A DNA stretch of 64,000 nt from Pseudomonadota bacterium (GCA_039190005.1 JBCCYM010000001.1:36024-100023); one strand, 5' to 3'. Shown: positions 5,673-61,205, counted from the first letter of the stretch. Numbers and translations: made by a program. The notes: generated by a model not told the origin, from the letters alone.

Positions 5673-5691
5673 TTTTGTTGGTGTTTTACTA

Positions 5692-6282: not shown

Positions 6283-6380
6283 AAGCGTTTCCCCATTTTA
6301 TAATTAAACTAGTCTTGTGACCGTAACATGAAACACTCGCGCGTACAAGCGCGCGAGGTCAAAGTATTGTAACATTACCG

Positions 6381-6803: not shown

Positions 6804-6879
6804 AAAACCTCCCAGGTTAATGTGTTAAAACATACACTAATTTATACAACATTTTTTTATCTCTTGCCAGATGAAAAAC

Positions 6880-7006: not shown

Positions 7007-7127
7007 TGAAAAACAACAATAAACTGGCTGCAAATTTTTGACTTTGTTCCTGGTTCGTCATACTATAATTGGTGAAGTTACACGAACAAACCATCTCGGT
7101 CGCAAGCGACCGAATTGTGGAAAAATC

Positions 7128-8504
7128 ATGGGTAAACGCAACAAAAATTCATTCAAGGTCATTAAAGATCCCGTGCATGGATCAATGCAGTTTTCGCATG
7201 AGGAAATAGCATGGATTATGCCTTTTATTGACAGTGATAATTTTCAACGTCTACGCCACATCAAACAAGCTGGTCTGTGTGATTGGTTTTTTATCGGCGC
7301 GGTACACACACGCTTTAATCATTGTCTCGGTTGTTGTTATGTGGCCAGCCAGATTGCCAAGAAATTAGACTTATCAGACAGAGACAGACAAGCTGTGATG
7401 CTTGCCGCGTTATTACACGATATTGGTCATGGTCCTTTGTCACATACCTTTGAACCAATTTTTCATGAGACATGTATCAATCATGAGATGTGGACGCCCT
7501 ACTTTATTCAAGAATTTAATCAAGCCGATTTCCTGGAAAAATTGAAAAAAGGTTCGTCAACATTGTCGGTGTCATCGGCAACCTTAAAATTGGTTGAGCG
7601 TCTTATTATGCATCAAGAAAAAGAAAAGTCATTGCTCGCGGATATTGTCTCCTCGCAACTTGACGCCGATCGTTTGGATTATTTGCTGCGTGACAGTCAT
7701 TTTTGTGGCGTCGATTATGGTGAGTATGATTTTCCTTGGTTGTTAAACTGTCTGAGTGTTGTGAACTATAAAGGCAAGAATCGACTGGGTATTTTTGAAA
7801 ACGGTATTGGCGGCGTTGAACATTATCTGTTGGCGCGGCGTTTGATGACGCGTAATGTCTACCAGCATCAGAAAAAACACAGTGCCGAAAATTTATTGGT
7901 ACATTTTCTTAAATATTTATCACATGGCCTTGAACGCGATCAGCGTTTTGCCGAAATTAAACGCAAAACTTTGGCACAATTCATTATGCGCGTTAACGCC
8001 TTTAATGACGCGGTCAAAAAATCAAGCCATAAAACAAAAATCATCAAAGCGTTTTTGCGTGATAATTTCCAACACTATAAACAGCTTTATGATTATGATA
8101 TTTTTTCAATGATTCGTCATTGCGCCAATCTGGAGGGAGATCACCCGGCCGCCGAAATCGCCAGGCGTTTACAGCAACGTCAGTTGCCGAAAACATTTCG
8201 CATAGACGCCAAACATTACACACAAATGAAAAATACCATCGCTGAGCTTAAACAAAAAAATAACAAGATTAAGGATTGGCAAATTCAAATTCTCAATTTA
8301 CCCAGCAGTTCTTATTCCGGCAATCGTGATCCAATTTTAATCAACAGCAGTAACAACAAGGTTAAAAAACTACACGATCAGTCGCTTATTATCAACGCAC
8401 TGTCCAATCAATGGGAACATATCAGTTTGGTGGCTATTGATCAGCTTTTGCTTGATCAGCCAGCGATTATTAAACTCAGACGTAAGTTAGAAAAAATCAG
8501 CTAA
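7128..8504 (+). CDS. HD-domain dNTP triphosphohydrolase (SAMHD1/Dgt-like)
   Basis: KVIKDPVHGSMQF...FQRLRHIKQAG...HTRFNHCLG...LLHDIGHGPLSH matches the SAMHD1-type HD signature. Start moved to the ATG at 7128 (MGKRNK...) instead of the upstream ORF extension. Confidence 0.7.
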   Translation: MGKRNKNSFKVIKDPVHGSMQFSHEEIAWIMPFIDSDNFQRLRHIKQAGLCDWFFIGAVHTRFNHCLGCCYVASQIAKKLDLSDRDRQAVMLAALLHDIGHGPLSHTFEPIFHETCINHEMWTPYFIQEFNQADFLEKLKKGSSTLSVSSATLKLVERLIMHQEKEKSLLADIVSSQLDADRLDYLLRDSHFCGVDYGEYDFPWLLNCLSVVNYKGKNRLGIFENGIGGVEHYLLARRLMTRNVYQHQKKHSAENLLVHFLKYLSHGLERDQRFAEIKRKTLAQFIMRVNAFNDAVKKSSHKTKIIKAFLRDNFQHYKQLYDYDIFSMIRHCANLEGDHPAAEIARRLQQRQLPKTFRIDAKHYTQMKNTIAELKQKNNKIKDWQIQILNLPSSSYSGNRDPILINSSNNKVKKLHDQSLIINALSNQWEHISLVAIDQLLLDQPAIIKLRRKLEKIS

Positions 8505-33446: not shown

Positions 33447-36400
33447 CTAACTCTCTGATTGTTCTAATAATGCACCGGTTCCAAAACATGTCCAGATGAT
33501 TACTATTAATGATAATAAATAGTCAGAAGCCACCTCTGGATCTTCTGCGTCTGAAATAAAAGGTGTATAAGAAGTGAACTGCCCGGTGATCTTCGCCATG
33601 GTAAAAAGGAGATCAGATACAGATGGATTAGATTTATTACAGAATGAGATGATGTTTAGCACAATTTGTATCGATTCACGGCAAATATTCCATTGCTGTA
33701 AAAAACTCAATGTTGTCTCTAAATCATCCATTGTTGCAAAAATACGTATTGTTTTATTCATAACATCACTCCAATGAAGAAATAACGAATAATCATATAA
33801 TAGGCTATTTAGATTTAAATTTTCATATGTTTGAATAAATTCAACAGTAACACGAACCCATTTAATCATGATTCTTAAAACTGCCAAAATTTTGTAAGAT
33901 TTTCTAAATGCCCAAGTTGTATTTTCAATCGTGCGACACCCGTAAATGATCAATTCTATCATAATGTCATCATTGCATGCGCTACCCGATTGAGCCAGTG
34001 ATGACGTTTTTTTTGAAGATGACAATTGATCATTGGAATAATTTGGTAAAGTACATTGATTTGTACACTTGCCATTTTCAATTAAATAAGCAACACAGTA
34101 GAATGTCGCAGCCAAAAAACTCGCTAAATCTATAACTGGAGGACCTTTTGGTAATAAATCGACTTTTCCATTGGTGACCTTTTTGATAAATTCAAATGTT
34201 AACACAAGTGGTATAGGCAGTACTGCCAGCAAAGCTGGTAATTCTAACACATTGCTTATAAATGAAGACAATTCATCGGCGGCAATCGTGCCAAATTGAC
34301 GCACGGCATCAGCACTGTTACTTAATATAATGTCAACACTATTTTGCATACCCTGAAAAACACTAATTAATATATCAGGAAAGTTGGGAATATTAATAAT
34401 TGTATTAACAAGTGTATTGACAATATTTTCACTCTCTTGAGTAAGTGTATTCGTTATATCATCACTAATATTTGTCATCGCAGTGGTAACAGATGTTGGC
34501 ACATCAAAAGTAGCATTCAGTCCTTCAGCCACTAGCTTTTCGATCAACGATAAAATTTTATTAACTAGATGAAATAAAAAAGAAACCATATGAGATAAAA
34601 AACCATTACCATTAAATAAGTTAACACTCGCCGGTGGCGAAGTGGTTTTTTCAAGGTTGTTAATTAATGATTGTACACTGTTATCAAATTTGCTTTGAAT
34701 GCTTGTTATACCACTCGCAACTACATCTGCCTCGTTAACTAGACCGTTCTGTATGGCACTTGTAGTGAAATAACTCTTAAAGATAGGTTTCATCTGATTA
34801 GCAACCTCGGCAATATCAACAAAAAATTGCGCTAGTTCAATCAACAGTAAAACCTCAACAACAATTAAAATTTCAGGAAACACAATCAGTAAGACAGCCT
34901 TTAAACAAAAATCAATGGCATGTTCTAAGAATGGGCATGATTGCAATCCAGGTATTTCCAGACTATCACTTAACATAAAATGTAAGATTTCTGGTGCAAC
35001 ACTGTGTGATATCTTATGAATAAGATCACCCAGACGGTGAAACAAGCCACAGCCAGTGCTCCCTAAGAGTTGGTTGCTCATTTGTGTACTTTGATTACTA
35101 GAAAGCATGGTCGTAATCTGTTTTTGGCTGGGATCAAAGCTCCAGGTATAGTTTTCATACGGATTAAAACCATCAGGATATTTTGTTGTCGTTGGCTTAG
35201 CTGGTATGAGTGACGCGGCATAATTTAACGGATCAATACTATTACTGGTAGTTGCATTATTAACACCCTGGATATCAAACTGTGTTGGTTGTTCCTGAGT
35301 TTTAGTAGCTGCATTTCTAATGAATCGGCTCATCGCTGTATCACCAGCACTTGGATTACTAGTATCATTGGTATTAACATATTTGGAATTATAGTTAAAT
35401 CCCTGTTGATGAACAGCTGAGGTATTGGTGTAAGTAAATGTGCCACTTGAGTCCTGATAAGTTGAACGTTGTTGAGCACCCAATGATAAAGGAGAGACTG
35501 CCCATTGGGTTACTGCGCCATTATTTGTGGTGCTATCATCGTCTGCTGCACTACTGTTAAATTTCTGCAAAAATGCCTGTTCTGCTTTGTTGATTAAGAA
35601 TTGCTTTACATCGATGATTCTCAAAAACAAACTACAATGTAGTCGACCTCGGGCAGGCACTCTTAACACTAATTTACCGGAGTACTGATTTACTGGTAAT
35701 AACGCCGATGTGGTGCGATTAATTAAATGATACGAACGCGTGTGATCGCAAAGAATCTTCAATGCAGTGGCTGAGCGTATCTCAATTAATTGGGTGGAAC
35801 TCAGCTGTACCGGATTGCCATACACATTTGTCGGGGTAATCTCAGTATGGTAAAAACACTCATCCGCCACCACAACATTTGATACGTTAGTCTGCGATGA
35901 CCAAATCACTGTATTAGTTTTATCCCTGATGGCTAGACCACCATCATCGGATGCTTGGAGATAAAAAAGAGAGTTAGGAGAGGGCGTGAAACTACTATCA
36001 TCGTCGGATGGTGTCCAAATATCAGTACCATCATCGTCACGGAGTACTAAATTACCATCAGCTTGAAAATATAGCTTTCGTGCAAGCGCATCTGTTGATG
36101 AACTACATGTGGAAGTCTTACTATCCCATACATTAGTCCAATCACTACTGCCTACTTTTTTCTGCCATACTAGCTTGCCTAGATTACTAGTATCACTTTC
36201 CGATGTTATTATCAATAGTCGATAATAAGTATCATTCTCCCCTGGCACTATAATACTTTTACCATCACTTAATAGCAGTTGTTCTGTGCTATTATCCGGG
36301 CTTGAACCACTAAAACACCGCGCATTTTCAAAACCATCCATTTGGATGACAAACTGTTCTTCTTGCCAACTCGACTCCATCATTTTGTTATAACAAATAC

Positions 36401-38804
36401 TTGCACATATTTTATTGGTCTGAGTATTTTTATTAATATAAATGTATTCAGAATCATGCGAAAAGCGATTTAATGCATAAAAAGCTAAATAATCATCACC
36501 TAAAGATGAAGCATCATAATAATTACCTTGTGGTTTTGGTTTGCCACCTTCACCTGTTCCTACGCTCCAAGTTGTTTCATTAAGGTTCGTGTCCCAAATA
36601 ATAAGATTTCCTGATGATTGCAAATAAAATACATTAGTAGATTCACCATCATTACCATTTGACCAAACGGCTTTTCCTGAGCTGTTATACACTACCAAAC
36701 TTCCATTACTATGAAACATTAGTTTGACACCACCTTTGTTTGCAATATTAGCAGACCAAATTACTGTCCCATAATTAGAAGATTCACCAGTATGGTTATA
36801 TAACACCAGATTCTCATCACTTTCCTGTAAAATCAACAGGTAGGAATTGCCATTAGTAGTGTTTTTGGTCAAGATACTTTGACCAGAGGTTAGCACTGTA
36901 CTATTAGGCTTAAACTCTAGCGAACCATCGCCAGGTGCCTGATAAGAAAATGCCGGTACAGCAATACCATAACCTGACAATGTCGTTGTTATTGGTGTGC
37001 CGTATTTACTCTCATTAGAATTTTGAATTTGTTGACGCAATACACACAAATTTCCTTTGGAGTCTGAACAGTAAAAACGAAATAATCGCTGTATGCCAGT
37101 ATTAGAAAAATAACGCCCATATTTACTGCAACCACCATATAAGGTACTTTTTTTAAGTGGATTATCTTCATTTACCTCAACAGGAAAAGCAAAATCTTGT
37201 TTAGCAATATACCATCCGCCATCAATCTTACCTTGTGAATTAGTATTGGTAAGAATAGCTAATATACCACTGTGTAAAACAGTCATTAATGCAACTTTAC
37301 CTGCGTCACTACTAATTTGATATACTTTCACTAAATCAGCAATCGCATTATTAATTTGAACATAGTTCGTAATATTACTGCTGTTAATATGTAAAGTTTG
37401 CTTTCCATTTAAATAGTAAGCGACGCCTTGTGATGACGTTTTTTTTGAGACAGTATTACTAGAAATAGTCAACTTACCTGAGCGCTTGCTGTTGTTACAA
37501 ATAACAGCTAAATCCAGTGCCACACTTTGAAAAGGCTGCGAGCTAGTGAGATCAAATCCACTTATATTTAATAAATTAATACCCGAAGTGTAGGTCGCCG
37601 TATCAGTGGCATAAATAACTTCAATGGGTACAATATGAACACTACCTTGTAAGTCGGTATAAATTAAAAAATGCGGAGCAAGAGGGGTATTACCATTTTG
37701 GGTCTTAACAGAACAATTTATAAGGAACAATCCTTGCCCATTGATATCGTAATAGGTTCTTACATCGATTTTTAAGTTAGGTTGATTAGATATTTGTTGA
37801 GCAAATATATCATAAAGGGGTAAAATTTTCCAATCGCCTATGGTGGATTGCTTCTCAGCTGATAAAGAATCCTGTAATTCCAGTGATACCTCGGCACTAC
37901 AGGTCTTCACTAATAGGTAATACTGCTTCGATGATGCGCCAGCAACAAAAACTGACCAAGCACCATAGATGGATAATCCAGTGTCATTATTACTATCAGA
38001 CTGAACTTGATTGGTTTGCGAATGAGTAATGGCTTCTATACAGGGGACATTCGTGTCTTGGAAAGTCAGGCCATATTTAAACGTATAACCATTACTCGCA
38101 TTAATCAATAACTCTTGGAAACCTTGCGTTACTGAATCACCTTTCTCTGCTCGAGAAGTTTGTTGTTGGTGACGAAAATAAGTCAAACCATTTAAATCCG
38201 ACTGATCATTCGGATTCAACTGCATAAAATGAGAAAACTGGATAAATTCAATCGGACCATAGTGATAGCCAATATCAGCAAAAGTATTTTCCAAAGGTGT
38301 ACTATCCTCCTCATCAACACCAATCAACTGACTTTGTATCTTAGGTAGTGGTTGAAATCCTTCTAACACCGCGTGCAAATTTTGGTAATTGCCACTCGTT
38401 TCTACTGGGCCAGTAATCGCCGGCACAGCATTGTGAGTGACATCACGAAACAGTTCACCATTAAGTGTTAAGCCACCAGGCGTTTGCAAGCTAGCCATGC
38501 TTTGAGCGGTCAAACCCACCTCTTTAGGATCCACATGCAACGCTTTATCCACCTGTCCCCAAGCAGTGGGGATTAATCCGCTTTTTACCAAACCGGCAAA
38601 CAGACCAACTTTGGCGGAGCCTTTTAAAAACTGACGTCGAGAGACTAATAAATCGAAGGCTTTTAATTCTTTTTCGCGAATGTTGTCATCTTCGATGACA
38701 TGTTTGAGCCGTTGGGATAATTTTTCACGCACCTGTTTGAATGAACGGATTTTTTTCTTTTTTTGTTGGTAAGCGTTCGATTTTGATTTTTTATCAGATA
38801 CCAT
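33447..38804 (-). CDS. Giant (1785 aa) Tat-signal secreted protein with two bulb-type (B-) lectin domains and a hydrophobic helical C-terminal region
   Basis: Strong RBS (AAAGGGGGACTC-ATG). Twin-arginine motif SRRQFLKGSAKVGLFAGL after a 54-aa basic n-region. Two MMBL lectin domains with Q-x-D-x-N-x-V-x-Y repeats (QESDENLVLYN / HSNGSLVVYN / QSSGNLIIWD and QADGNLVLRD / QASDDGGLAIRD). A long S/T/N/Q-rich linker. A C-terminal region of about 550 aa rich in amphipathic/hydrophobic helices. Starts 18 nt after tatC. Confidence 0.75.
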   Translation of the reverse strand: MVSDKKSKSNAYQQKKKKIRSFKQVREKLSQRLKHVIEDDNIREKELKAFDLLVSRRQFLKGSAKVGLFAGLVKSGLIPTAWGQVDKALHVDPKEVGLTAQSMASLQTPGGLTLNGELFRDVTHNAVPAITGPVETSGNYQNLHAVLEGFQPLPKIQSQLIGVDEEDSTPLENTFADIGYHYGPIEFIQFSHFMQLNPNDQSDLNGLTYFRHQQQTSRAEKGDSVTQGFQELLINASNGYTFKYGLTFQDTNVPCIEAITHSQTNQVQSDSNNDTGLSIYGAWSVFVAGASSKQYYLLVKTCSAEVSLELQDSLSAEKQSTIGDWKILPLYDIFAQQISNQPNLKIDVRTYYDINGQGLFLINCSVKTQNGNTPLAPHFLIYTDLQGSVHIVPIEVIYATDTATYTSGINLLNISGFDLTSSQPFQSVALDLAVICNNSKRSGKLTISSNTVSKKTSSQGVAYYLNGKQTLHINSSNITNYVQINNAIADLVKVYQISSDAGKVALMTVLHSGILAILTNTNSQGKIDGGWYIAKQDFAFPVEVNEDNPLKKSTLYGGCSKYGRYFSNTGIQRLFRFYCSDSKGNLCVLRQQIQNSNESKYGTPITTTLSGYGIAVPAFSYQAPGDGSLEFKPNSTVLTSGQSILTKNTTNGNSYLLILQESDENLVLYNHTGESSNYGTVIWSANIANKGGVKLMFHSNGSLVVYNSSGKAVWSNGNDGESTNVFYLQSSGNLIIWDTNLNETTWSVGTGEGGKPKPQGNYYDASSLGDDYLAFYALNRFSHDSEYIYINKNTQTNKICASICYNKMMESSWQEEQFVIQMDGFENARCFSGSSPDNSTEQLLLSDGKSIIVPGENDTYYRLLIITSESDTSNLGKLVWQKKVGSSDWTNVWDSKTSTCSSSTDALARKLYFQADGNLVLRDDDGTDIWTPSDDDSSFTPSPNSLFYLQASDDGGLAIRDKTNTVIWSSQTNVSNVVVADECFYHTEITPTNVYGNPVQLSSTQLIEIRSATALKILCDHTRSYHLINRTTSALLPVNQYSGKLVLRVPARGRLHCSLFLRIIDVKQFLINKAEQAFLQKFNSSAADDDSTTNNGAVTQWAVSPLSLGAQQRSTYQDSSGTFTYTNTSAVHQQGFNYNSKYVNTNDTSNPSAGDTAMSRFIRNAATKTQEQPTQFDIQGVNNATTSNSIDPLNYAASLIPAKPTTTKYPDGFNPYENYTWSFDPSQKQITTMLSSNQSTQMSNQLLGSTGCGLFHRLGDLIHKISHSVAPEILHFMLSDSLEIPGLQSCPFLEHAIDFCLKAVLLIVFPEILIVVEVLLLIELAQFFVDIAEVANQMKPIFKSYFTTSAIQNGLVNEADVVASGITSIQSKFDNSVQSLINNLEKTTSPPASVNLFNGNGFLSHMVSFLFHLVNKILSLIEKLVAEGLNATFDVPTSVTTAMTNISDDITNTLTQESENIVNTLVNTIINIPNFPDILISVFQGMQNSVDIILSNSADAVRQFGTIAADELSSFISNVLELPALLAVLPIPLVLTFEFIKKVTNGKVDLLPKGPPVIDLASFLAATFYCVAYLIENGKCTNQCTLPNYSNDQLSSSKKTSSLAQSGSACNDDIMIELIIYGCRTIENTTWAFRKSYKILAVLRIMIKWVRVTVEFIQTYENLNLNSLLYDYSLFLHWSDVMNKTIRIFATMDDLETTLSFLQQWNICRESIQIVLNIISFCNKSNPSVSDLLFTMAKITGQFTSYTPFISDAEDPEVASDYLLSLIVIIWTCFGTGALLEQSES

Positions 38805-50367: not shown

Positions 50368-50565
50368 GTTATGCTTTATTTTGCCGAAAGTAAAATATTG
50401 ATTGTGGGATGCTGAACAATAATATAAATGTTATTTAATTCTGCTTCTCCTTCAGTTACTTCTTTCTATGGAGCAATTCACTTCTAAATATAAAATCAGT
50501 AGATTGCTTAATTTAGTCCTATACTTAAATAACAATTAAATAGTTAAGAAAAGAAAGAGGCGTGT

Positions 50566-51960
50566 ATGCGTAGGATCACAAAAAAATTAATTATTGTGGT
50601 AGGTACTTTGTTTGCAATTGCTAATGCTTCTAATGTGTTGGCAGAATATTATCCCTATACTACATATTTTGCTGTCGCTTGTGTTGCTGACTATGAAACA
50701 GTAGACACCTATGACGATAAAAATAATTATATAGCTGCTGCAGCTGCTTGTGAAGGTGGTGCTTCTACAGAAAGTCAAGACCAAGCAAATCAAAATGCCA
50801 TTAATAATGCAAACGCAAGTTGTGATACACTAATGGCTAAAAATAGTACAGGATATTTATCGGGTTGTGACCTTTCTCTGGATAGCTACGTGCATATTAC
50901 AATTGACGCTTACAATAATGATACATGTGTAGGTGCAGGTGCAGCTGTAGAAGATAATACAGGCACTACAGTAGTAGCTAAAGGGAACTTCGATGATGTT
51001 GATTCAACTATTGGTGATTCCATCAATGAATATAAACAACATCAATATGTCGAAATTATTTGTCCTCATACTACTAATGCTAATACTACCCCTATTTATT
51101 TTGCTATCGCTTGTGTTGCTGAATATACAAGTGAGGGTAAGGATGGGATGGGTGTTGCAGCGGTTTGTGAAGGTGGTGCTTCTACAGAAAGTCAAGACCA
51201 AGCAAATCAGAATGCACTTAATAATGCAAATGCGAGTTGTGATAAGCTAATTTCTCAAGGTACTGGTGGAGAGACACAGAGTTGTGGCCTGAATTCGAAG
51301 AACTATACCTATATTACTGCTGATGCTTACAATAATAATATATGTGTAGGTGCAGGCGCAGCTTTCGAAGAAGAAGGCAATAAAGGTGCCGCAGTCGTGG
51401 CCAAAGGAAGCTTATCTGATATTAGTTCAACTATTAATAATGGCCTTGGTGGTATAAATACACTCCATCAAGATGTGGAAGTTATTTGTCCCCACAATAA
51501 TACGGCAACAACAACTTATAACATGTCAAAAAATTTAAGTAAGTCATATACATTCTCGCATGATGTCAAAGGCAAAGATATAGTCTCGCTTAATGTCTAT
51601 CCGACAATGCAAAACACCTCGCTTTATATATCAGCAGGCGATGCGGCAACTAAAGATGTTGATGTTGTTGTAAGTAGTGTGATGACTGCTTATGTAGATA
51701 CTGATAAAAGCACTTGTTTAGCCAATATGCGTAAAGAGAAGAATGGTGATCTTATCGGCCATCCTGATAAATTACCTTGTACACTTGAACTAAAACCAAA
51801 AAATATTACTTCGAGTGATGTGGGTTATATTACGGTTAATCCATCAGTAAAGGGTAATGCGACACACTGGAATACAGAAAGTCGAATATTGCCGGTGAAT
51901 TTGTACAGTAATTATAACGATTATTTATTGTATCACGCTAATGAATCTGAATCGAAATAA
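50566..51960 (+). CDS. Secreted protein with a large internal tandem duplication (two ~140-aa Cys-containing repeats)
   Basis: Signal peptide. Repeats YFAVACVADYE...AAACEGGASTESQDQANQNAINNANASCD...DAYNNDTCVGAGAA...VEIICPH and YFAIACVAEYT...AAVCEGGASTESQDQANQNALNNANASCD...DAYNNNICVGAGAA...VEVICPH are near-identical at nucleotide level. Confidence 0.6.
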   Translation: MRRITKKLIIVVGTLFAIANASNVLAEYYPYTTYFAVACVADYETVDTYDDKNNYIAAAAACEGGASTESQDQANQNAINNANASCDTLMAKNSTGYLSGCDLSLDSYVHITIDAYNNDTCVGAGAAVEDNTGTTVVAKGNFDDVDSTIGDSINEYKQHQYVEIICPHTTNANTTPIYFAIACVAEYTSEGKDGMGVAAVCEGGASTESQDQANQNALNNANASCDKLISQGTGGETQSCGLNSKNYTYITADAYNNNICVGAGAAFEEEGNKGAAVVAKGSLSDISSTINNGLGGINTLHQDVEVICPHNNTATTTYNMSKNLSKSYTFSHDVKGKDIVSLNVYPTMQNTSLYISAGDAATKDVDVVVSSVMTAYVDTDKSTCLANMRKEKNGDLIGHPDKLPCTLELKPKNITSSDVGYITVNPSVKGNATHWNTESRILPVNLYSNYNDYLLYHANESESK

Positions 51961-51991
51961 AGATTGATACACGGGTAGGTTTTTTTGGATG

Positions 51992-52040
51992 CCGACATCA
52001 GTATAAAAGGACAACTCCTGATGTCGGGGTTTCTTTACTT
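51992..52040 (+). terminator. Hairpin terminator module (copy A)
   Basis: ccgacatcag-N16-ctgatgtcgg followed by a T-rich tail. Near-identical to the module at 53841-53890. Confidence 0.55.
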
Positions 52041-52150
52041 GCTTATTGATGTGTTGACTTACAAAACCTATCCAGTATGAGATGTTGGCTTTCTATAGCA
52101 ATGCAGGATCGCTTCCAAATACGCTTTTCTTGCATTTTGACCCATGGCGA

Positions 52151-52167
52151 CCCCCCCTTTTTTTTTT
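52151..52167. repeat. Homopolymeric C7-T10 tract in the upstream region of the 52400 gene
   Basis: cccccccttttttttttattttt lies about 235 bp upstream of the start codon. It is a candidate slipped-strand site. Confidence 0.6.
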
Positions 52168-52399
52168 ATTTTTCTTCTTCGGTTACTTTTTTTATGAGGA
52201 AATTCGTGTCGCGTATTTAATTAAAAAAACATCGAATAATTGTAGGGATTGTTGCAATTTGGCAAATTCGTCGTTTCCGCGGAGGCGGGAATCCAGTTAT
52301 TTCAAGCAGTTATACTGCTTGAAATCATAAAATAATTCAGATTGCAACAGTCTCTTGTACTATAATTAGATCGAATTATTAAGTTTAAGAGGCGTCGTT

Positions 52400-53821
52400 A
52401 TGAACAAGAAATTATTTTTAGTGTCAACAACTTTTGTTACGCTTATGCTGAGTTCTGGTGCATATGCACAAGATAGTTTGTTTCTTCCTAAAGATGGGTT
52501 TAGTGATTTGCAAAGTGTTAAAGCAACCGTCGATTTGAGCCCAGATATTATGCACCCGGGCAAGGTGGGACGTTTGACAGTTAAACTACCTACCAATGCT
52601 AGCGAAGACAGAACTTTTACATTTACAACTGATTCTAATTTACATTTTTTCCCTCATAATTCTTGTACAATTTCTACTGGTGATAAAACGTGTAGCGTAT
52701 TTGTATCTGCGGGGTTTAAGAATATTGTTGGCGAGCATACGATTAAAGTTACCACAGCTGAAGGTTCAATCACAAACCCTGAGCTTAAACTTACTGTTAA
52801 TGCAAATGTGGCTACGAAACTTTATTTAGGTAGCATTGACCAGAACACTTCACCTATCTTGGAGTGTAATATATCAGATAACGGTCCACAACTTAGTTCA
52901 TGTAACGCATTGGACCTCAGTTCTATAGTAGGAAATAATAATCAAACGGCACTAACAGGTGGAGCTCTTCTTACTGCTTCGAACGAAACGACGTATCTTT
53001 ATCTTTCTGGAGTAAGTGGGGAAAATGGGCGTCAAATGGTGAGATGCCAAATCACAGCACATGGTGTAACTGCTGATACATGTAAAATATTAAACATAAC
53101 GGATGTGGATAAGCCTATGCACATAGCGTTTAATACATTTACAACAAGTAGTAGTTCAACTACATATGCCTATATTTCTAATGATAGCAAATACATATAC
53201 CAATGTACTGTAGATGAACAAGGTGAAATAAATAACTGTACGATCCAAGCTGATGGTGAATTTGTAAATGCAGCTGGCCTTGATACAAAAACACTTGCCG
53301 GTACTACATATATTTATGTAGGTAATGGTAGTAATAGTGTCAATTATATTACTAGATGTACTTTAAACAGTGGAACTGGCGAATTGAGTGATTGTACTCA
53401 TCTTGATGGCGGCGGTAAAATTTTTATAAGTCCTGGACATCTTACAGTAAATCATATTTCTGAAAACCTTTACGTTGCAAATGTTGATGAGCAAAACGCA
53501 GGAAATAATAATATAGTAGCTTGTAGTCTCAATAATAATGGAGAGCTAACTGATTGTACAGTTGTAAGCGGTTTAGCTGTTGTTTATCCGGGTAATATCG
53601 TGCCAACTAATGTTAATATCGACGGAAATGATTCTGTATTTTTGTACGTGGGTAATCAGTCATCTCAAAAATCATCAGCGGACATGGGAACTATTAGAGG
53701 TTGTCAGTTGTTGAGTGATAAATTACTATCTTGTAATAGTTATGGTGATACTGTAGATATAAAAATTAGCGATCTTGACAGTAGTTTTACAGGTGGCGTT
53801 GATGGTATAATAGCGTATTAA
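52400..53821 (+). CDS. Secreted protein with iterated Cys-bracketed repeats (beta-propeller-like)
   Basis: Signal peptide MNKKLFLVSTTFVTLMLSSGAYAQ. About 7 iterations of a [YLYV/YIYV]-x-N...C-x-[LI]-x(3-5)-G-x-[LI]-x-[DS]-C-[TN/K] pattern (LSSCN, TADTCK, INNCT, LSDCT, LTDCT, LLSCN). Confidence 0.55.
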   Translation: MNKKLFLVSTTFVTLMLSSGAYAQDSLFLPKDGFSDLQSVKATVDLSPDIMHPGKVGRLTVKLPTNASEDRTFTFTTDSNLHFFPHNSCTISTGDKTCSVFVSAGFKNIVGEHTIKVTTAEGSITNPELKLTVNANVATKLYLGSIDQNTSPILECNISDNGPQLSSCNALDLSSIVGNNNQTALTGGALLTASNETTYLYLSGVSGENGRQMVRCQITAHGVTADTCKILNITDVDKPMHIAFNTFTTSSSSTTYAYISNDSKYIYQCTVDEQGEINNCTIQADGEFVNAAGLDTKTLAGTTYIYVGNGSNSVNYITRCTLNSGTGELSDCTHLDGGGKIFISPGHLTVNHISENLYVANVDEQNAGNNNIVACSLNNNGELTDCTVVSGLAVVYPGNIVPTNVNIDGNDSVFLYVGNQSSQKSSADMGTIRGCQLLSDKLLSCNSYGDTVDIKISDLDSSFTGGVDGIIAY

Positions 53822-53840
53822 TTCTTTTTTCTAATATATA

Positions 53841-53890
53841 CCGACATCAGGATAAAAGGACAACTCCTGGTGTCGGAATTTTTTTATTTG
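53841..53890. terminator. Bidirectional hairpin terminator module (copy B) between convergent genes
   Basis: ccgacatcagg-N16-cctggtgtcgg followed by aattttttta. It lies between the + strand gene ending at 53821 and the - strand fba ending at 53895. Confidence 0.65.
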
Positions 53891-53894
53891 CTTA

Positions 53895-54932
53895 TCAATA
53901 CTGCCGACTCATTTCTTCCACAGAAAAAACACGCTTGATTTTCGACGCTTGACCGGCTGAGCCGAAAGCTTCAAAGCGGGCTTTGCAGATTTCTTTCATC
54001 GCTTCTTTGGCGGCACCAAGGTATTTGCGTGGATCGAATTCTTTTGGATGCTCAGCAAAGTAACGACGCGTCGCGCCTGTCGCGGCTAAACGCAGATCCG
54101 TATCAATATTCACTTTACGCACACCGTGTTTAATGCCTTCTTGGATTTCTTCAACCGGTACACCATAGGTTTCACCAATGGCGCCACCATATTGATCGAC
54201 TATTTTTAACCAATCTTGTGGCACCGAAGAAGAGCCGTGCATGACTAAATGGGTATTGGGAATTTTTGCATGTATGGCTTTGATGCGATCAATTGCCAGA
54301 ATGTCACCAGTAGGTGGACGGGTAAATTTATAGGCGCCGTGACTGGTGCCGATGGCAATGGCTAAGGCGTCCACTTGCGTTTGTTCAACAAAATCATGCG
54401 CTTGTTGCGGATCAGTCAATAATTGTTCACGATCAAGCTCACCCTCAGCGCCTGAGCCGTCTTCTTTGCCCGCTTTCATTGTTTCCAAAGAACCTAAACA
54501 GCCTAACTCACCTTCTACCGATACGCCACAAGCATGGGCCATACGCACCGCGAGCGCGGTGGTTTCAGCATTGTATTCATAACTTGCCGGTGTTTTAGCG
54601 TCTTCATGTAAGGAGCCATCCATCATCACCGATGTAAACCCTAATTGTATCGAGCGCTGACAAATTGCTGGCGAAGCGCCGTGATCTTGATGCATACAGA
54701 TGGGAATATGTGGCCATTCCGTGCTGGCGGCGACAATTAAATGTTTGATAAACGCTGAGCCGGCATATTTTCGCGCGCCGGCTGACGCTTGAATAATTAC
54801 CGGGCTATCCACTTCATCGGCCGCTTCCATAATGGCGCGTACTTGTTCTAAATTATTCGCGTTAAACGCGGGCATACCAAAATGTTGCTCGGCGGCATGA
54901 TCTAACAATTGTCTTAATGTAATTAAAGCCAT
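53895..54932 (-). CDS. fba: Class II fructose-bisphosphate aldolase
   Basis: Conserved Zn/active-site regions ([25 protein letters not shown]). 345 aa. Confidence 0.92.
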
Positions 54933-54949
54933 TTCAATTCCTCACTTAG

Positions 54950-56422
54950 TTATGATTGATTTTCATCTTGACCAACACGATAAATTTTAACCAAATTCGT
55001 TGTGCCAGCCCCTTGATCGCCTTTGGTAATTAACACTAAATCACCATGGTGTAAAATATCGCGATCCGTCAGTATTCGGACCGCTTCTTTGTTGATGTGA
55101 TCGCGAGATACCGCGTTCATATCAAAATAAAATGGATACACGCCGCGATAAAGACAAACGCGCCGCGCGGTTTCTTCATGATGCGTTAGGGCGAAAATCG
55201 GTGTGCCACTGCGGATGCGTGACATCCACAACGGCGTTGAGCCGGTTTCAGTCAAGGAGACAATGGCTTTAATATCGAGATGGTTGGCAATATAGACAGC
55301 CGACATGGCAATGGCTTCATCAATGCGGTTGAAATGCGCGTCCATCCGGTGGGTTGATATTTTTGTTTCCGGCTGTTTTTCTGTGCCTAAACAGATGTCC
55401 GACATCGCTTTTACCACTAAAGCCGGGTGTTTGCCAGTCGCTGTTTCCGCGGAGAGCATGACCGCGTCGGTCGCGTCAAGCACGGCATTGGCGACATCAA
55501 ACACTTCAGCCCGTGTTGGAATAGTGTTTTCTATCATGGTTTCCATCATTTGCGTGGCCGTAATCACGGGTTTATTCAGCAAGCGTGCCTGGTGAATAAT
55601 CCGCTTTTGTACCGCCGGTAATTCAGTGTCGCCAATTTCAACCCCTAAATCACCGCGCGCTACCATGACCGCGTCGGATACCTCAATAATTTCATCAATA
55701 ACCGGCACGGCTTCCGCGCGTTCAATTTTGGCAATGACACCGGCTTTACCGCCAGCTTCTTTGATCAGCTGTTTAGCGTATGTCATATCTTCAGCGCTGC
55801 GCGGAAAGGAAATAGCAATGTAATCAACATGTAAGGCAACCGCGGTTTTTAAATCTGTTTTATCTTTTTCAGTCAGCGCTTCGGCGGTTAAACCACCACC
55901 TTGGCGGTTGATGCCTTTATGGTCGGAAAGTTTGCCGCCGACAATGACAGTGCAGATAATTTCACTGTCTTTAACTGCTGTTACTTTAAACACAAGACGA
56001 CCATCATCCAGCAACAAGGTGTCACCAGTACGAACATCATCAATGAGTTTTTTATAGGTAATGCCCACCCGTTGTTGATCGCCGGCATGATCATCGAGCT
56101 TGGCGTCGAGAATAAATTCCGCGCCTACTTCGAGATGAATGGTGCCATCTTTAAACGCGGCGATACGGATTTTGGGACCTTGTAGATCAGCAAAAACAGC
56201 CACATGGCGATTCAGTTTCTTGGCAATTTCTCTAACAGCTTCAATGCGTTTTTGATGATCTTCAGCCGTGCCATGCGAGAAATTGGCGCGAAATACATTG
56301 GCACCAGCGGCAATGGTTTTCTCAAGTACGCCAGGGTCATCCAAAGATGGTCCCATGGTCACCACAATTTTGGTGCGGCGCCAGGTATTGGTTGTCATAT
56401 TGGTATTTGCCATTTCAGTCAT
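54950..56422 (-). CDS. pyk: Pyruvate kinase
   Basis: RRTKIVVTMGPS, FRANFSHG, MVARGDLGVEI. Start trimmed to MTEMANT to avoid overlap with pgk. Confidence 0.9.
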   Translation of the reverse strand: MTEMANTNMTTNTWRRTKIVVTMGPSLDDPGVLEKTIAAGANVFRANFSHGTAEDHQKRIEAVREIAKKLNRHVAVFADLQGPKIRIAAFKDGTIHLEVGAEFILDAKLDDHAGDQQRVGITYKKLIDDVRTGDTLLLDDGRLVFKVTAVKDSEIICTVIVGGKLSDHKGINRQGGGLTAEALTEKDKTDLKTAVALHVDYIAISFPRSAEDMTYAKQLIKEAGGKAGVIAKIERAEAVPVIDEIIEVSDAVMVARGDLGVEIGDTELPAVQKRIIHQARLLNKPVITATQMMETMIENTIPTRAEVFDVANAVLDATDAVMLSAETATGKHPALVVKAMSDICLGTEKQPETKISTHRMDAHFNRIDEAIAMSAVYIANHLDIKAIVSLTETGSTPLWMSRIRSGTPIFALTHHEETARRVCLYRGVYPFYFDMNAVSRDHINKEAVRILTDRDILHHGDLVLITKGDQGAGTTNLVKIYRVGQDENQS

Positions 56423-56435
56423 GGTGTTCTGCCTC

Positions 56436-57614
56436 TTAGTTTGCTTGTTTTTGTTGCAATGCTTCGATGGCTGGTAATGTTTCACCTTGTAGACAAGCTA
56501 AAAACGCGCCACCACCGGTTGAAATATAAGATACTTTATCAGCGATATTATATTTTTCAATGGCCGCTAGTGTATCACCGCCACCGGCGATTGAAAAGGC
56601 TTTGCTTTCGGCAATGGCCGCGGCAATGGCTTTGGTGCCGCCGCCGAATTGATCGATTTCAAAAACACCTACCGGTCCATTCCATAAAATAGTACCAGCG
56701 TTTTTAATGATTTTGGCAAATTCTTTTCGTGTTTTCTCACCGATGTCTAATATTTTTTCATCATCGGCAATATTGCTGATAGGTTGATCGTAAGCTTCAG
56801 CATTGGCTGAGCAGTCTCTGGCGACGATCACGTCACTCGGCAGTGGAATAGATTTGCCGGTTTGTTTTGCCAGGGCGACCAGGCGCTCCGCTTCGTCAAT
56901 AAAATCTTCTTCACAAAGTGAGCCACCAACATGATGACCTTCAGCTAAGATAAACGTATTGGCAATACCACCGCCGACAATCAGGGTATCCACTTTTTCA
57001 ATTAATGCATTCAGCACTTTTAATTTTGTCGATACTTTTGAGCCAGCAACAATTGCGACGACAGGTTTTTTAGGTGATTTAAGCGCTTTATCAATCGCGG
57101 TGATTTCCCGTTCTAAAAGTGGACCGGCACAAGCTTGAGGCGCGAATTGAGCGACACCATAAGTGGATGCTTCTTTACGATGCGCTGTCGCGAAAGCGTC
57201 CATCACATAAACATCACAAAGCGCGGCCATTTTTTTGGCGAGCGCTTCATCATTTGCTTTTTCGCCGACATTAAAACGCACATTTTCGCACAGCACCACA
57301 TCACCCTCATCAACGGTGACACCATCAAGCCAATTTTCAATTAAGGGAACGTCTTTACCCAGTAATTCAGACAGCCGTTTGGCCACCGGCGCCAGCGAAA
57401 AATCCTCATTATAATCGCCTTCCTGTGGTCGCCCCAAATGTGACATAATCATGACCTTGGCTTTGGCTGACAGTAATGTCTTAATGGTTGGTAGTGCTGC
57501 TTGAATACGGGTATCACTGGTGATTACCCCTTTTTTCATGGGTACATTCAAGTCCTCGCGTATCAGCACGCGTTTTCCTTTAAGATTCAGTTCATTCATT
57601 GTCATAATCTTCAT
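56436..57614 (-). CDS. pgk: Phosphoglycerate kinase
   Basis: N-terminal [13 protein letters not shown] and the hinge/ATP-binding motifs. 392 aa. Confidence 0.92.
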
Positions 57615-57635
57615 AAGTTAACCCCCTAAATATAG

Positions 57636-58940
57636 TCATTTTCGATCAGTATTGTTACGATAACTCGGTTGATATTGGAGTGCAAGAAAAAACCACACCA
57701 CCAGCATCATAATGCCACTGATCGCCAGCGGCATCACAATATCATAACTGGCAACAATACTGCCGATAATCGAAATTGGAATACTGGCAAAAGCATATAT
57801 CGAGGCTAAAATGCCAAATACATGCCCTTCATTAGCGGGTGTTGTCTCGTTGGCAACTACAGCATTAAAACAGGGCATAAAAATAATAATAGCTAGCATA
57901 TAGACAAGTCGGAATAGATACACTTGCCACTCGGTTCTTGATAAGCCCAGTAATAATAAAAATATTGCCGCGACTATCAAACTTGGTTTAATGAGGCGTT
58001 CCGCGCGTATTGAACTGACTAATGGAAAAACCACAGTAATTTGCAATACCGCGTACATAATCCCTACAACAACGTATAAATGACCAATTTGTACTTCAGA
58101 AAAATTGACACTCCCTCTTAGGAAAGCGTTAAAAAACTGTATATAAAAAGCAAAACCAATGGAGAAGAGTGCCCACATTAAAAATAAAAAACGCACCTCA
58201 GCCATATAAAAAGCCTGTATGATATTATTAATACCTATCATCCAAGTCAGTTTATTTTCTTGACGCGTCTGATTCATATTGCGTTGAAAGCGATAGGTTT
58301 GTAACTGCGTTTCAGAAACTGTCTCGCGGAAAAGCGCCATCAATAGTATGACAATAATAAGATTGACAATGGATAAAATATAAAAAGGGGTGCTATATGA
58401 AAACCAGCCCACCAGTTTGGCATCGATGAGATGAGAACCGAGCATGGGGCCGATAATTGAACCAGCACCAATGCCGATTTCCAATAAATTAAAGTGAACG
58501 GTTCTCGATTTATTTTGACTAATATCGGCAAAACTAGCTTGCGCAATCGATAGATTGGCGGCAAATAAACCGGTGATCAAGCGGCTGATAAATAGCAGGG
58601 CTAAAGAGCCAGCGTTAATCGCGACACCGCTCAAAAAAATGCCGCAAAATGTGCCGGAAGTGGTAATAATTAAGCCTTTGCGTCGTCCCCACTGATCAGA
58701 AAATTTACCGAGAACAGGTGCGGCAAGAAATTGTCCGGCATAGGTTATAGCAAACAACAAACCTAGTATAATAAAACGTTCGTGGCGGTTATAGATGCTG
58801 ATAAAACTGTGCTTTGAGTCGACAAACAAAAACAGAATAGAGGTATAAACCACACCTATCGCTGAGTAATCGAGCGTTACAACGGCTACTAACAGTAATT
58901 TGTTAACAAAATAATTTTTTGCTTGCGCCGGTGATTTCAC
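57636..58940 (-). CDS. MFS transporter inserted within the glycolytic gene cluster
   Basis: 12 TM. MFS signature GKFSDQWGRRKG between TM2 and TM3. Confidence 0.75.
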   Translation of the reverse strand: MKSPAQAKNYFVNKLLLVAVVTLDYSAIGVVYTSILFLFVDSKHSFISIYNRHERFIILGLLFAITYAGQFLAAPVLGKFSDQWGRRKGLIITTSGTFCGIFLSGVAINAGSLALLFISRLITGLFAANLSIAQASFADISQNKSRTVHFNLLEIGIGAGSIIGPMLGSHLIDAKLVGWFSYSTPFYILSIVNLIIVILLMALFRETVSETQLQTYRFQRNMNQTRQENKLTWMIGINNIIQAFYMAEVRFLFLMWALFSIGFAFYIQFFNAFLRGSVNFSEVQIGHLYVVVGIMYAVLQITVVFPLVSSIRAERLIKPSLIVAAIFLLLLGLSRTEWQVYLFRLVYMLAIIIFMPCFNAVVANETTPANEGHVFGILASIYAFASIPISIIGSIVASYDIVMPLAISGIMMLVVWFFLALQYQPSYRNNTDRK

Positions 58941-59012
58941 TTCGCTGTGCCTGTGTAATCAATGCTGGTAAAGGTAAACACGCATCACGGTCGACAATAA
59001 CTTATACACTAA

Positions 59013-60020
59013 TTAGCTTGCCGACATCATTGCCAAACCAACATCAATCATGCGATTAGAAAAACCCCACTCATTATCATACCAAGACGATACTTTAACC
59101 ATGTTATCAATTACCCGTGTTAATTGACTGTCAACGGTTGAGGACATCGGCACATGATTAAAATCTATGGATACTAAGGCTTCATCAGTAAATCCTAATA
59201 CCCCTTTTAATTCATCATCAGCCGCGGCTTTTAAAATGCTGTTAACTTCTTCTACTGAAGTAGGACGAGCCGCTTCAAACGTTAAATCGACAAATGACAC
59301 ATTGGCGGTTGGTACGCGCACGGCAAAGCCATCTAAACGACCATTGAGCTCTGGTAAAACCAAACCGACCGCGGCGGCGGCACCGGTTTTGGTTGGAATC
59401 ATTGAGAGGCCAGCGGCACGCGCGCGACGAATATCTTTGTGAGGCGCGTCTTGGGTATTTTGATCATTGGTGTAAGCGTGAATTGTTGTCATCAGGCCTT
59501 TAACAATACCAAGTTTGTCCTGTAAAGGTTTTGCCAATGGCGCTAAACAGTTTGTCGTACAGGAAGCGTTGGAGACAATATTATCTGAGGCTTTGAGAAT
59601 GTGATGATTAACACCATATACCACCGTGGCATCAACATTTTTACCCGGCGCGGAAATAAGCACTTTTTTAGCGCCGGCATCCAAGTGTGCTGCCGCGTTG
59701 TGACCATCGGTGAAATGTCCGGTGCATTCATAAACCACATCAACGCCCATTTCTTGCCAAGGTAGATTTTTAGGATCACGTTCGCAGAGTACTCGAATCA
59801 AATCACCATTGATCAATAAACCATCATTTGTTGTTTCAACCTCGCCATGAAAGCGTCCATGAATTGAATCATATTGGAACAAATGCGCCAGTGTTTGCAC
59901 ATCAGTCATATCATTAACAGCAACAATTTCCATTTCTGAATGTCGATTGTATTCATATAAGGCTCTCAACACATTACGACCAATGCGACCAAAACCGTTA
60001 ATTGCTACTTTAATTGTCAT
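59013..60020 (-). CDS. gap: Glyceraldehyde-3-phosphate dehydrogenase
   Basis: [15 protein letters not shown]ossmann start with AGGAG RBS 8 nt upstream. SCTTNC active site. The track ORF is a spurious upstream extension. Confidence 0.92.
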
Positions 60021-60250
60021 TTGATTTTCTCCTGTTGTTTTAAATTTTACACTATTATAATCATGATACCATAAATAAATCAATGTTATAAATAAAAGAA
60101 CAAGATTTGCTTTAATATTTCACTCGCAAGCTTCAACAAAGAGGAAAATGTATGTCTGGTTTGATGAATAACTGGGGAATCATCCTGAGTTATATAGCAC
60201 TTTCCTAAGCTGTTGATACATTAATGACATCATAATTATTGTCCTTCGCG

Positions 60251-60273
60251 TGTTCCTGAGCTTGTCGAAAGGT
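60251..60273. repeat. Solo unit of the TCCTGAGC(C/T)TGTCGAA(A/G)GG repeat
   Basis: tgttcctgagcttgtcgaaaggt lies immediately 3' of the SDR gene. Confidence 0.6.
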
Positions 60274-60274
60274 A

Positions 60275-61069
60275 TTACTGTTTCTTCACATAATGACGCA
60301 AAATACGATACATCAATTGTGGAAATAATGCCTGCAAGCAGGACACCCATTTTAATTTTGCTGGAATAAAAAGATTTTGCCGTGAACTACCTAAGGCGGC
60401 AACAATTTTCTTGGCCACAGTGGCGGCATCCGATGTTGCTGGGCTGGGTTTAACAACAGCTGTTTTTTTATGGCTGCTGCCTAATGAGTTTTTTCGCAAA
60501 TGAGTGCCGCTCATCCAGCCCGGGAAAACCTGTAGCACGTTGATTTCTGGGACATCCAATCGCAAGGTATTGAAAAATCCCGTAGCCGCGTGTTTGCTGG
60601 CAACATAAGCGCTATGATTCGGTACGGCAATAAGCCCCTGAATTGAAGAGATTAATACGACCTGACCTTGAGATTTTTTTAGATACGCAAGCGCGTTGAG
60701 TGTGCAGTGGACTGGCGCGAAATAGTTGATTTGCATCAGTTCGTTAATCATTTGTTCATCAATGGTTTCGACATTCTGCCACATGCTCACGCCAGCATTG
60801 TTGATAAGCATGTCAATTTTACCGAATTGTTCAACGGCTGTGTTAATGAGCGTCGCGCAATGTTGGGATTGTTTCAAGTCACCAACATGGACGTGGATTT
60901 TTGATAAGCTGCTATGGCACTGCTCAACAGTTTGTCGCAGGCGTTCGGCATCACGACCATGGAGCAGTAATTTAACCGGATAACGGCTGAGTTTAATGGC
61001 TAATTCACGCCCTAAACCACTGGAAGCGCCAGTAATAATGATGACTTTGTCGTTTAAATGTTTATTCAT
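60275..61069 (-). CDS. Classical short-chain dehydrogenase/reductase (candidate acyl/alkyl-DHAP reductase)
   Basis: TGASSGLGRELA cofactor motif. NNAG. Catalytic Y-x3-K (YVASK). 264 aa. Flanked by CCTGAGCCTGTCGAAGGG repeat units on both sides. Confidence 0.75.
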   Translation of the reverse strand: MNKHLNDKVIIITGASSGLGRELAIKLSRYPVKLLLHGRDAERLRQTVEQCHSSLSKIHVHVGDLKQSQHCATLINTAVEQFGKIDMLINNAGVSMWQNVETIDEQMINELMQINYFAPVHCTLNALAYLKKSQGQVVLISSIQGLIAVPNHSAYVASKHAATGFFNTLRLDVPEINVLQVFPGWMSGTHLRKNSLGSSHKKTAVVKPSPATSDAATVAKKIVAALGSSRQNLFIPAKLKWVSCLQALFPQLMYRILRHYVKKQ

Positions 61070-61092
61070 ACCGATTGTGTTTCAAGATAGTA

Positions 61093-61205
61093 CCCTGAGC
61101 CTGTTGAAGGGCGGTTCCTGAGATCGTCGAAGGGTGGTTCCTGAGCCTGTCGAAGGACGGTCCCTGAGTTTATCGAAGGGTAGTCCCTGAGCTTGTCGAA
61201 GGGTT
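61093..61205. repeat. Five tandem ~21-bp units of the CCTGAGCCTGTCGAAGGGNGG repeat
   Basis: ccctgagcctgttgaagggcgg / ttcctgagatcgtcgaagggtgg / ttcctgagcctgtcgaaggacgg / tccctgagtttatcgaagggtag / tccctgagcttgtcgaagggtt. Confidence 0.85.

Follow-up and report, generated by a model that had tools for sequence, protein, structure and literature searches.

We analysed a 64,000-nucleotide stretch of DNA (GCA_039190005.1, JBCCYM010000001.1:36024-100023; hereafter the window) from a metagenome-assembled genome (MAG) labelled 'Pseudomonadota bacterium', and focus on two adjacent genes within it that encode predicted exported proteins, ORF1 (open reading frame (ORF) 1; 50566..51960, + strand, 464 amino acids (aa)) and ORF2 (52400..53821, + strand, 473 aa), with the locus tags AAGA27_00435 and AAGA27_00440. 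An initial annotation of this DNA, made from the sequence alone, had placed both genes at exactly these coordinates. They lie between a metallophosphoesterase gene and the fructose-bisphosphate aldolase gene fba, and a 58-nt hairpin-bearing module recurs downstream of both. The 439-nt spacer that separates ORF1 from ORF2 holds, in this order, the first copy of the module, about 100 nt with no assigned feature, a C7T10 homopolymer pair, a half-site of a repetitive extragenic palindromic (REP) element of a family that we call a, a palindrome, a TATAAT hexamer, a ribosome-binding site (RBS) and the ATG of ORF2. The host is an uncultured Coxiella/Legionella-like gammaproteobacterium; compared with 185,579 species representatives, its Fba has best identities of 77-80%, with a maximum of 80%, and the top matches are Coxiella, Coxiellaceae and Kangiella MAGs. 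What is new at the locus is a very divergent member of a large uncharacterised family of Cys-clamped six-bladed propellers, which has ties to the propellers of the lactonase type; ORF1 encodes a true orphan.

By their sequences both products are probably exported through Sec and rich in disulfides; each has a predicted signal peptide and 14 Cys residues, which agrees with their earlier description as secreted proteins. The signal peptide of ORF2 comprises residues 1-23, is of the standard Sec type and has a predicted cleavage site after AYA (MNKK-LFLVSTTFVTLML-SSGAYA/Q). It precedes an N-terminal beta-sandwich domain of the immunoglobulin (Ig)-like type (52469..52813, + strand), which aligns with the same domain of paralogue P0012 and has eight strands in our structural model, and a probable six-bladed beta-propeller (52814..53818, + strand) made of six repeats of 48-60 aa, each with the pattern YxYV...C-x10-12-C. 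The 14 Cys are arranged as seven C-x8-12-C pairs, six of them inside the repeats and the first (Cys 89/98) in the separate N-terminal domain. ORF2 is thus best read as a signal peptide, an Ig-like domain with the first Cys pair and a lactonase-like propeller of six blades, each of which has its own Cys pair. The initial annotation, which saw about seven Cys-bracketed repeats and suspected a beta-propeller, was probably right about the fold, and right about the seven Cys pairs, but not about the seven repeats, of which there are six in addition to the Ig-like domain.

Nothing above threshold was found for ORF2 in Pfam, in NCBIfam or in a PDB sequence search, and the only match of a word-indexed search among 5.8 billion proteins was ORF2. 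A profile of the protein's own blades was built by aligning its six internal repeats (consensus YxYVgN...I..C.l...G.L..C) and was run against 1.84 billion cluster representatives. This profile retrieved 305 proteins with E ≤ 1e-3, 43 of them with E ≤ 1e-10, and most contained six matched stretches. The word-indexed search had missed the family altogether, and with a 12-sequence family alignment as the query it returned only 2 proteins, a limitation of the method; as the yield of the exhaustive hidden Markov model search demonstrates, 'orphan' calls for repeat proteins that come from word-indexed searching are not trustworthy.

The top members of the family begin with a signal peptide or lipobox and often continue with an N-terminal domain of about 110 aa that contains Cys, ahead of six repeats of the type 'QYAYVa...vYqCtlN.dGtfn.C..TP..GAP.W.P.giaFATvnGt'. 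Across 598 blades from 150 proteins the two blade Cys are conserved at 100% and 98%; the median member is 428 aa long and has seven C-x(7-14)-C pairs, and six domains were found in 84 of the 150 proteins. ORF2 conforms to this pattern, with a signal peptide and one Cys pair in each of its six blades. Named members include a Legionella santicrucis 'secreted protein' (WP_058515101.1 / KTD55591.1), a protein from a Gammaproteobacteria MAG and a paralogue in the same genome, AAGA27_02960 (MEM9243003.1). ORF2 and AAGA27_02960 are 26% identical (E 3e-21) over 416 aa, a stretch that takes in the N-terminal domain, and ORF2 is about 30% identical to the Legionella protein over the blades. These two proteins share with ORF2 the signal peptide, the Cys-containing N-terminal domain and the six Cys-clamped blades; they differ from it in the low identity (26-30%), in genomic contexts that are unrelated to that of ORF2, and in possessing the canonical outer-strand motif 'TPxxGAPxWxP...FATvnG', which ORF2 lacks. 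Judged by its sequence, ORF2 belongs to a widespread family that is poorly modelled in Pfam and NCBIfam, and it is a highly diverged representative.

The connection to lactonase-type propellers comes through other members of the family. Among 80 members that were scanned, 37 match PF10282 (Lactonase, beta-propeller) at E ≤ 0.01, the best at 4.9e-16, and further Pfam matches are to SGL (10), NHL (10) and Arylesterase (6); the closest family members have no Pfam or NCBIfam match. A single-sequence AlphaFold2 (AF2) model of ORF2 is all-beta and of low confidence (predicted local distance difference test (pLDDT) score 50.8, predicted template modelling (pTM) score 0.49). In Foldseek this low-confidence model is matched best by the filamin-NHL unit of Lin41, in which an Ig domain is joined to a six-bladed propeller; filamin Ig domains were also matched, and apart from these the matches were confined to propellers, namely PpgL, gluconolactonases, PON1 and the NHL and YWTD propellers. 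Like the lactonase-type propellers (PF10282 and the related SGL PF08450, NHL and arylesterase/PON families), ORF2 is built from repeated blades that measure about 50-55 aa and include a YxYV(a/t)N strand. Unlike them, it reaches no Pfam or NCBIfam threshold, shows six detectable blades and not seven, and combines an invariant C-x10-12-C in each blade with an Ig-like N-terminal domain and a signal peptide.

The conserved Cys pair of each blade probably forms a disulfide clamp, and the most likely role of the protein is that of a stable scaffold for binding or hydrolysis outside the cytoplasm. We found no member of the family that has been characterised or whose structure has been solved, and the literature on the family or on the sample gave nothing relevant. 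The gain in annotation is that ORF2 can be placed in a large family of exported propellers of Legionella and many environmental genomes that has no dedicated Pfam or NCBIfam model. In bacteria associated with amoebae, such families offer candidate surface or type II-secreted factors.

ORF1 presents a different picture. Its predicted signal peptide (residues 1-26; n, h and c regions read from the sequence, cleavage predicted after VLA; MRRITKK-LIIVVGTLFAIA-NASNVLA/E) is followed by two tandem repeats, A (residues 34-175; 50665..51090, + strand) and B (residues 178-317; 51097..51516, + strand), and by a C-terminal region of 147 aa (residues 318-464; 51517..51957, + strand) with 2 Cys and no detectable family. 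The 14 Cys of the protein follow a regular pattern; each repeat contributes six, those of B being in register with those of A, and all six positions have been retained at 58% aa and 73% nucleotide identity. With nonsynonymous divergence (dN) at 0.30, synonymous divergence (dS) at about 0.45 and a dN/dS of 0.68, the duplication is not very recent and the constraint on it is weak. A 51-nt block, CEGGASTESQDQANQNA, differs by a single base between the repeats (50733-50783 vs 51150-51200), while the remainder is about 70% identical, which suggests local gene conversion or a constraint at the nucleotide level. The internal duplication of about 140 aa that the initial annotation described is thus real, but it is not recent, and in place of near-identical stretches of about 75 nt the longest run with at most one mismatch measures 51 nt.

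The word-indexed search of 5.8 billion proteins found no relative of ORF1 beyond the protein itself. There was likewise no match in Pfam, NCBIfam, PDB, plasmids, phages or viral contigs, PADLOC and split-domain Pfam scans gave nothing significant, and no ORF1-like gene is present at the loci that carry ORF2 relatives. Exact look-up in the contig index yielded no entry for ORF1 or for the metallophosphoesterase. A possible dodecin assignment (PF07311) was rejected: the score was 17.3 against a cut-off of 22.5 bits, the similarity was a helix motif at profile positions 9-32 (24 of 64), and repeat B alone gave no match. The AF2 model, at a pLDDT of 32, is unusable. ORF1 is a real orphan gene nonetheless, because an ORF of 464 codons cannot arise by chance in DNA of 37% GC. 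Its product appears from its sequence to be an exported, disulfide-rich and lineage-restricted protein, consisting of a tandemly duplicated 140-aa six-Cys module and a C-terminal domain. ORF1 may be a young gene, in which case the internal duplication offers a small window on how such a gene grows.

Downstream of both genes lies the hairpin CCGACATCAG-N16-CTGATGTCGG, at 51992-52027 with 0 mismatches and at 53841-53876 with 1 mismatch; no further copy with up to 3 mismatches occurs in the window, where the chance expectation is 0. The initial annotation had noted a common hairpin of 36 bp; the similarity is in fact longer, a segment of 58 nt (51989-52046 vs 53838-53895) that is 88% identical, with 7 of the 58 positions differing. 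Copy 1 (51989..52046, + strand) has a 10-bp stem and a 16-nt loop, followed by GGTTTCTTTACTT, and folds at -23.8 kcal/mol (z -3.8); copy 2 (53838..53895, + strand) has a 12-bp stem with one G-U pair and a 12-nt loop, followed by AATTTTTTTATTT, and folds at -19.9 kcal/mol (z -4.2). No shuffled sequence was as stable as either hairpin, and the stems contain 6-7 GC pairs. Two substitutions inside the hairpin keep or extend the pairing, an A-U pair becoming G-U and a T-to-G change in the loop adding 2 bp. The loop core, ATAAAAGGACAAC, is 100% conserved between the copies, and the tails diverge. The hairpin lies 28-31 nt after the stop codon in copy 1 and 16-19 nt after it in copy 2. Copy 2 also folds on the reverse strand (-16.3 kcal/mol), and its end coincides exactly with the fba stop codon, fba being convergent with ORF2, so that it can serve both genes.

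The module most likely works as an intrinsic terminator. Both copies were found by a relaxed scan for a hairpin with a T-tail. A strict terminator scan with loops of 3-8 nt called neither hairpin, the loops of 16 and 12 nt being too long for it; its calls near copy 1 (52013-52031 and 52016-52029) correspond to another short stem inside the 3' arm. The T-tract is good in copy 2 (AATTTTTTTATTT), and weak and interrupted in copy 1 (GGTTTCTTTACTT). Rho-independent terminators, including bidirectional ones between convergent genes, resemble the module in the GC-containing stem of 10-12 bp, in the T-rich tail and, for copy 2, in the position between convergent genes; they differ in that loops of 12-16 nt are unusually large and that independent terminators would not be 88% identical over 58 nt. 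The simplest reading of the pair would be a locally duplicated intrinsic terminator. No Rfam family was found in the window at gathering and E-value thresholds, the only match being a chance one to a group I intron (E 0.14). We also considered and rejected an integron attC site: the module ends lack the GTTRRRY core, the flanking genes are mnmE, the metallophosphoesterase gene and fba, with no integrase, and the intergenic spacers measure 198 and 439 nt.

What the two genes have in common is limited to their edges. The idea that they are copies of one cassette did not survive comparison of the coding regions, which are unrelated; BLASTP gave nothing to make ORF1 and ORF2 paralogues (best E 0.56), and no paralogue of either was found within the window. 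Besides the 58-nt module at the 3' end, they share a 9-nt ribosome-binding word, AAGAGGCGT, which occurs twice in the 64 kb, right upstream of the start codons of ORF1 (50555..50563, + strand) and ORF2 (52387..52395, + strand). A marginal 5' similarity completes the list: the alignment of the 70 nt upstream of ORF1 with those upstream of ORF2 scores slightly above shuffled sequences (p ~0.02) and above any of 43 other upstream regions, which is suggestive but not conclusive.

In the spacer, a consensus -10 hexamer, TATAAT (52362..52367, + strand), lies 32 nt before the ATG of ORF2 and marks a putative promoter; there is no canonical -35 element at 16-18 nt from it, and the hexamer was read from the sequence, not listed by a two-hexamer promoter scan. 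Upstream of it come a half-site of REP family a, TTTCCGCGGAGGCGGGAATCCAG (52274..52296, + strand), with related copies at 44259-44331 and 46990-47120, and directly after that half-site a perfect 12-3-12 palindrome, ATTTCAAGCAGT-TAT-ACTGCTTGAAAT (52299..52325), which is unique in the window, folds together with the half-site (z -5.2) and ends about 37 nt before the putative -10. The palindrome may be an operator or part of a decayed REP element or miniature inverted-repeat transposable element (MITE). The C7T10 pair (52151..52167, + strand) is present where the initial annotation had placed it; it opens a polypyrimidine run of about 30 nt, 233 nt before the ATG of ORF2, and includes the only C-run of at least 6 and the only T-run of at least 10 in the window. 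It is spanned by no promoter call and is predicted to be unstructured, and the ORFs that cross it are all small, implausible and devoid of an RBS; its flanks had 0 matches in the JGI metagenomes.

The composition of the locus sets it apart. ORF1 and ORF2 have a GC content at third codon positions (GC3) of 0.232 each, the two lowest values among 46 ORFs (mean 0.408, standard deviation 0.064), and overall GC is 0.35-0.37 across 50-54 kb vs 0.42-0.48 in the flanks. On the left of the pair lie yidC-mnmE, a gene for a 194-aa protein with a signal peptide and the metallophosphoesterase gene, and on the right the convergent fba-pyk-pgk-MFS-gap. The order gap-pgk-pyk-fba is kept across 80 Fba-anchored loci of related species, and none of these has ORF1, ORF2, the phosphoesterase gene or the 194-aa gene beside fba; ORF1 and ORF2 are therefore lineage-specific. 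The border genes themselves are a cytoplasmic metallophosphoesterase (49123..50367, - strand; Pfam Metallophos, E 1.6e-7, at residues 142-330; GC3 0.366), whose N-terminal 140 aa have no family assignment and whose composition is normal for the genome, and the class II fructose-bisphosphate aldolase (53895..54932, - strand), the last gene of the gap-pgk-pyk-fba cluster. Both the extra N-terminal region of the metallophosphoesterase and the neighbouring secreted protein had been reported beforehand, and both are there. The window contains no tRNA, no integrase or transposase gene adjoins the locus, and no REP-associated tyrosine transposase (RAYT) or other transposase lies within 6 kb of it. 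Of the suggested 'accessory island', then, the accessory part holds, the genes being compositional outliers and lineage-specific, but borders and mobility of an island do not.

Taken as a whole, we think it probable, with appreciable room for doubt, that the locus is a small AT-rich accessory insert carrying two genes for exported proteins and a locally duplicated terminator, with no phase switch. The insert would lie between the metallophosphoesterase gene and the conserved glycolytic gap-pgk-pyk-fba cluster, and would consist of two separate transcription units for Sec-exported, disulfide-bonded proteins. Each gene would end in a copy of the one 58-nt element of hairpin and U-tract, acting as an intrinsic terminator, and copy 2, which separates the convergent ORF2 and fba, is probably shared by these two genes. 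The two copies would be local paralogues, made when one gene was placed beside the other, and not members of a dispersed mobile family. C7T10 would be a by-product of the AT- and pyrimidine-rich spacer, with no demonstrated regulatory role. On present evidence the locus is mildly interesting and not new biology, the duplicated terminator and the tract being curiosities and not signs of a new regulatory mechanism.

Several points weigh against this interpretation. There is no close relative by which to date or delimit the insertion, the nearest Fba being only 80% identical. Low GC3 extends to the paralogue and to other hypothetical genes, and its cause may be rapid evolution or weak expression instead of import. 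The ORF2 model is of low confidence (pLDDT 51, pTM 0.49), and the link from ORF2 to the lactonase propellers is transitive, since ORF2 itself matches no Pfam family. For the terminator, the loops of 12-16 nt are longer than is typical of intrinsic terminators, the T-tract of copy 1 is weak, and the full conservation of the 12-nt loop core could mean that the loop itself has a function. Finally, more copies of the hairpin may exist in the rest of the MAG beyond the ~74 kb covered, that is, the window and the contig that carries the paralogue (L082).

This last point bears on an alternative that we regard as unlikely, namely that the 58-nt module is a low-copy mobile palindrome of the REP/MITE type which was inserted independently 3' of both genes and acts as a portable terminator or messenger RNA (mRNA) stabiliser. 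The module is indeed, like REP and MITE palindromes, a short imperfect palindrome in 3' intergenic DNA, the genome tolerates REP families a and b, and only ~74 kb of it was inspected. Within those ~74 kb, however, there are only two copies, adjacent and 1.85 kb apart, and none in L082, whereas the true REP families of this genome are dispersed in many copies, at least 5 of them in the same window. The hairpin core had 0 matches in 185,579 species genomes, a set that does not include the present genome, and in the JGI metagenomes, and the 3' end of the ORF2 paralogue carries REP family b instead of this hairpin. These observations count against the 'mobile REP-like terminator' of the initial annotation.

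We judge it equally improbable that the two copies are direct repeats that arose when a 1.79-kb ORF2 segment (52047-53837) was inserted, in a single event, into a terminator between ORF1 and fba that served as the attachment site, whether by site-specific or by duplicative integration. Such an event would explain why direct repeats bracket exactly one gene and its upstream region and why copy 2 abuts the fba stop codon like a native operon terminator, and the REP debris in the spacer fits it as well. Yet neither an integrase nor a recombinase gene is present in the segment, 7 of the 58 positions differ between the copies, and the identical GC3 of ORF1 and ORF2 suggests a common and not a sequential origin. 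Nor does the similarity reach into the flanks: a relic of the fba 3' end downstream of copy 1, proposed from a manual alignment, had a Smith-Waterman score of 12 vs 10.4 ± 1.3 for shuffled sequences, with no similarity beyond the 58 nt.

The remaining alternatives to a simple accessory insert with a duplicated terminator concern regulation, and we give each of them very little weight. One is that C7T10 is a slipped-strand switch by which expression of ORF2 varies in phase, as had been proposed. In the 64 kb no other long C-run and no T-run as long occur; the two runs adjoin each other, and, as in the homopolymer contingency loci of Neisseria, Haemophilus, Campylobacter and Bordetella, the tract stands upstream of a gene for an exported protein. 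Unlike in those loci, no promoter spacer and no credible ORF contains it, the only good -10 hexamer being about 195 nt further downstream; such a placement speaks against a classical slipped-strand switch. Furthermore, the REP half-site and the palindrome intervene between tract and promoter, C7 is near the low end of mutable tract lengths in contingency loci, and no conserved upstream tract was seen at the other family loci.

Just as doubtful is a role of the hairpin as a common post-transcriptional control site, in which its loop AAGGA, with the GGA motif of CsrA/RsmA-type regulators, would co-regulate both mRNAs. CsrA has an established role in controlling the transmissive traits of Legionella, the GGA is unpaired in both predicted folds, and the loop core is fully conserved while the tail diverges; with two copies, however, such conservation is statistically inseparable from a recent duplication, a position in the 3' untranslated region and a loop of 12-16 nt are atypical of CsrA sites, and there is no Rfam match. 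A broader version, in which the 3' hairpin with its invariant GGA loop, AAGAGGCGT and the marginally similar promoter-proximal region form a common 'expression frame' for unrelated secreted-protein genes, through cassette-like exchange or co-regulation, for instance by a regulator of the CsrA type at the 3' hairpin, is in our estimation highly improbable too.

We compared the locus with an independent Logan assembly of the same run (SRR22824305), which reproduces 47100-50777 and 52281-61155 base for base. The 51-nt near-identical block of the ORF1 duplication contains the end of one Logan contig (L089), at 50777, and the REP family a half-site at 52274-52296 contains the start of the next (L001), at 52281. 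Because the Logan contigs break in the ORF1 repeat block and in the REP palindrome, the interval 50778-52280, which contains the second ORF1 repeat, hairpin copy 1 and the tract, is supported by the MAG assembly alone, and the number of ORF1 repeats in it needs independent confirmation.

Two genuine REP families stand out in the window. Family a, which is REP/MITE-like, consists of inverted pairs of (C)ATTCCCGCGCAGGCGGGAATCCAG and is found in the window at 44259-44331, 46990-47120 and 52274-52296, and on contigs L087/L088 at 9741-9769. Logan contigs of the same run start exactly inside elements of this family, at 47100 and at 52281. A 29-nt match to family a in an unrelated ENA metagenome contig that carries an ORF2-family gene indicates that the family is common to related organisms. 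Family b, CCCTTCGACAGGCTCAGGGCAAGCAGGC, occurs in the window at 4119-4276, 6881-7010 and 15104-15425, where three tandem units of about 85 nt occupy 15106-15360, and in L082 at 9575-9607; this last element lies 3' of the ORF2 paralogue, at a point where the Logan assembly breaks.

The paralogue AAGA27_02960 itself (L082 8158-9549, same MAG) has the architecture of ORF2 with a lipoprotein-type signal. It adjoins hypothetical genes of 175 and 655 aa that are low in GC3 too (0.26-0.30), and since its neighbourhood is also low, low GC3 is a feature of lineage-specific genes here as an entire class. Elsewhere, contig L087 carries at 148-2201 and 5234-7371 two tandem pairs, each of an outer membrane protein (OMP)-like gene (242 and 246 aa, 96% identical) followed by an ORF2-family propeller gene (432 and 456 aa), with a transposase gene between the pairs. 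The 242- and 246-aa proteins were considered as ORF1-like partners of the propellers and rejected, being OMP-like and unrelated to ORF1. Inside the 456-aa propeller gene, at about position 6558 of L087, is a G8 run, which is more promising as a phase-variable tract than C7T10. In another low-GC patch of the window (GC3 0.296), at 33447-38804 on the - strand, an ORF of 1785 aa has a D-mannose-binding lectin domain (B_lectin) as its sole Pfam match and may encode a further accessory surface or secreted protein.

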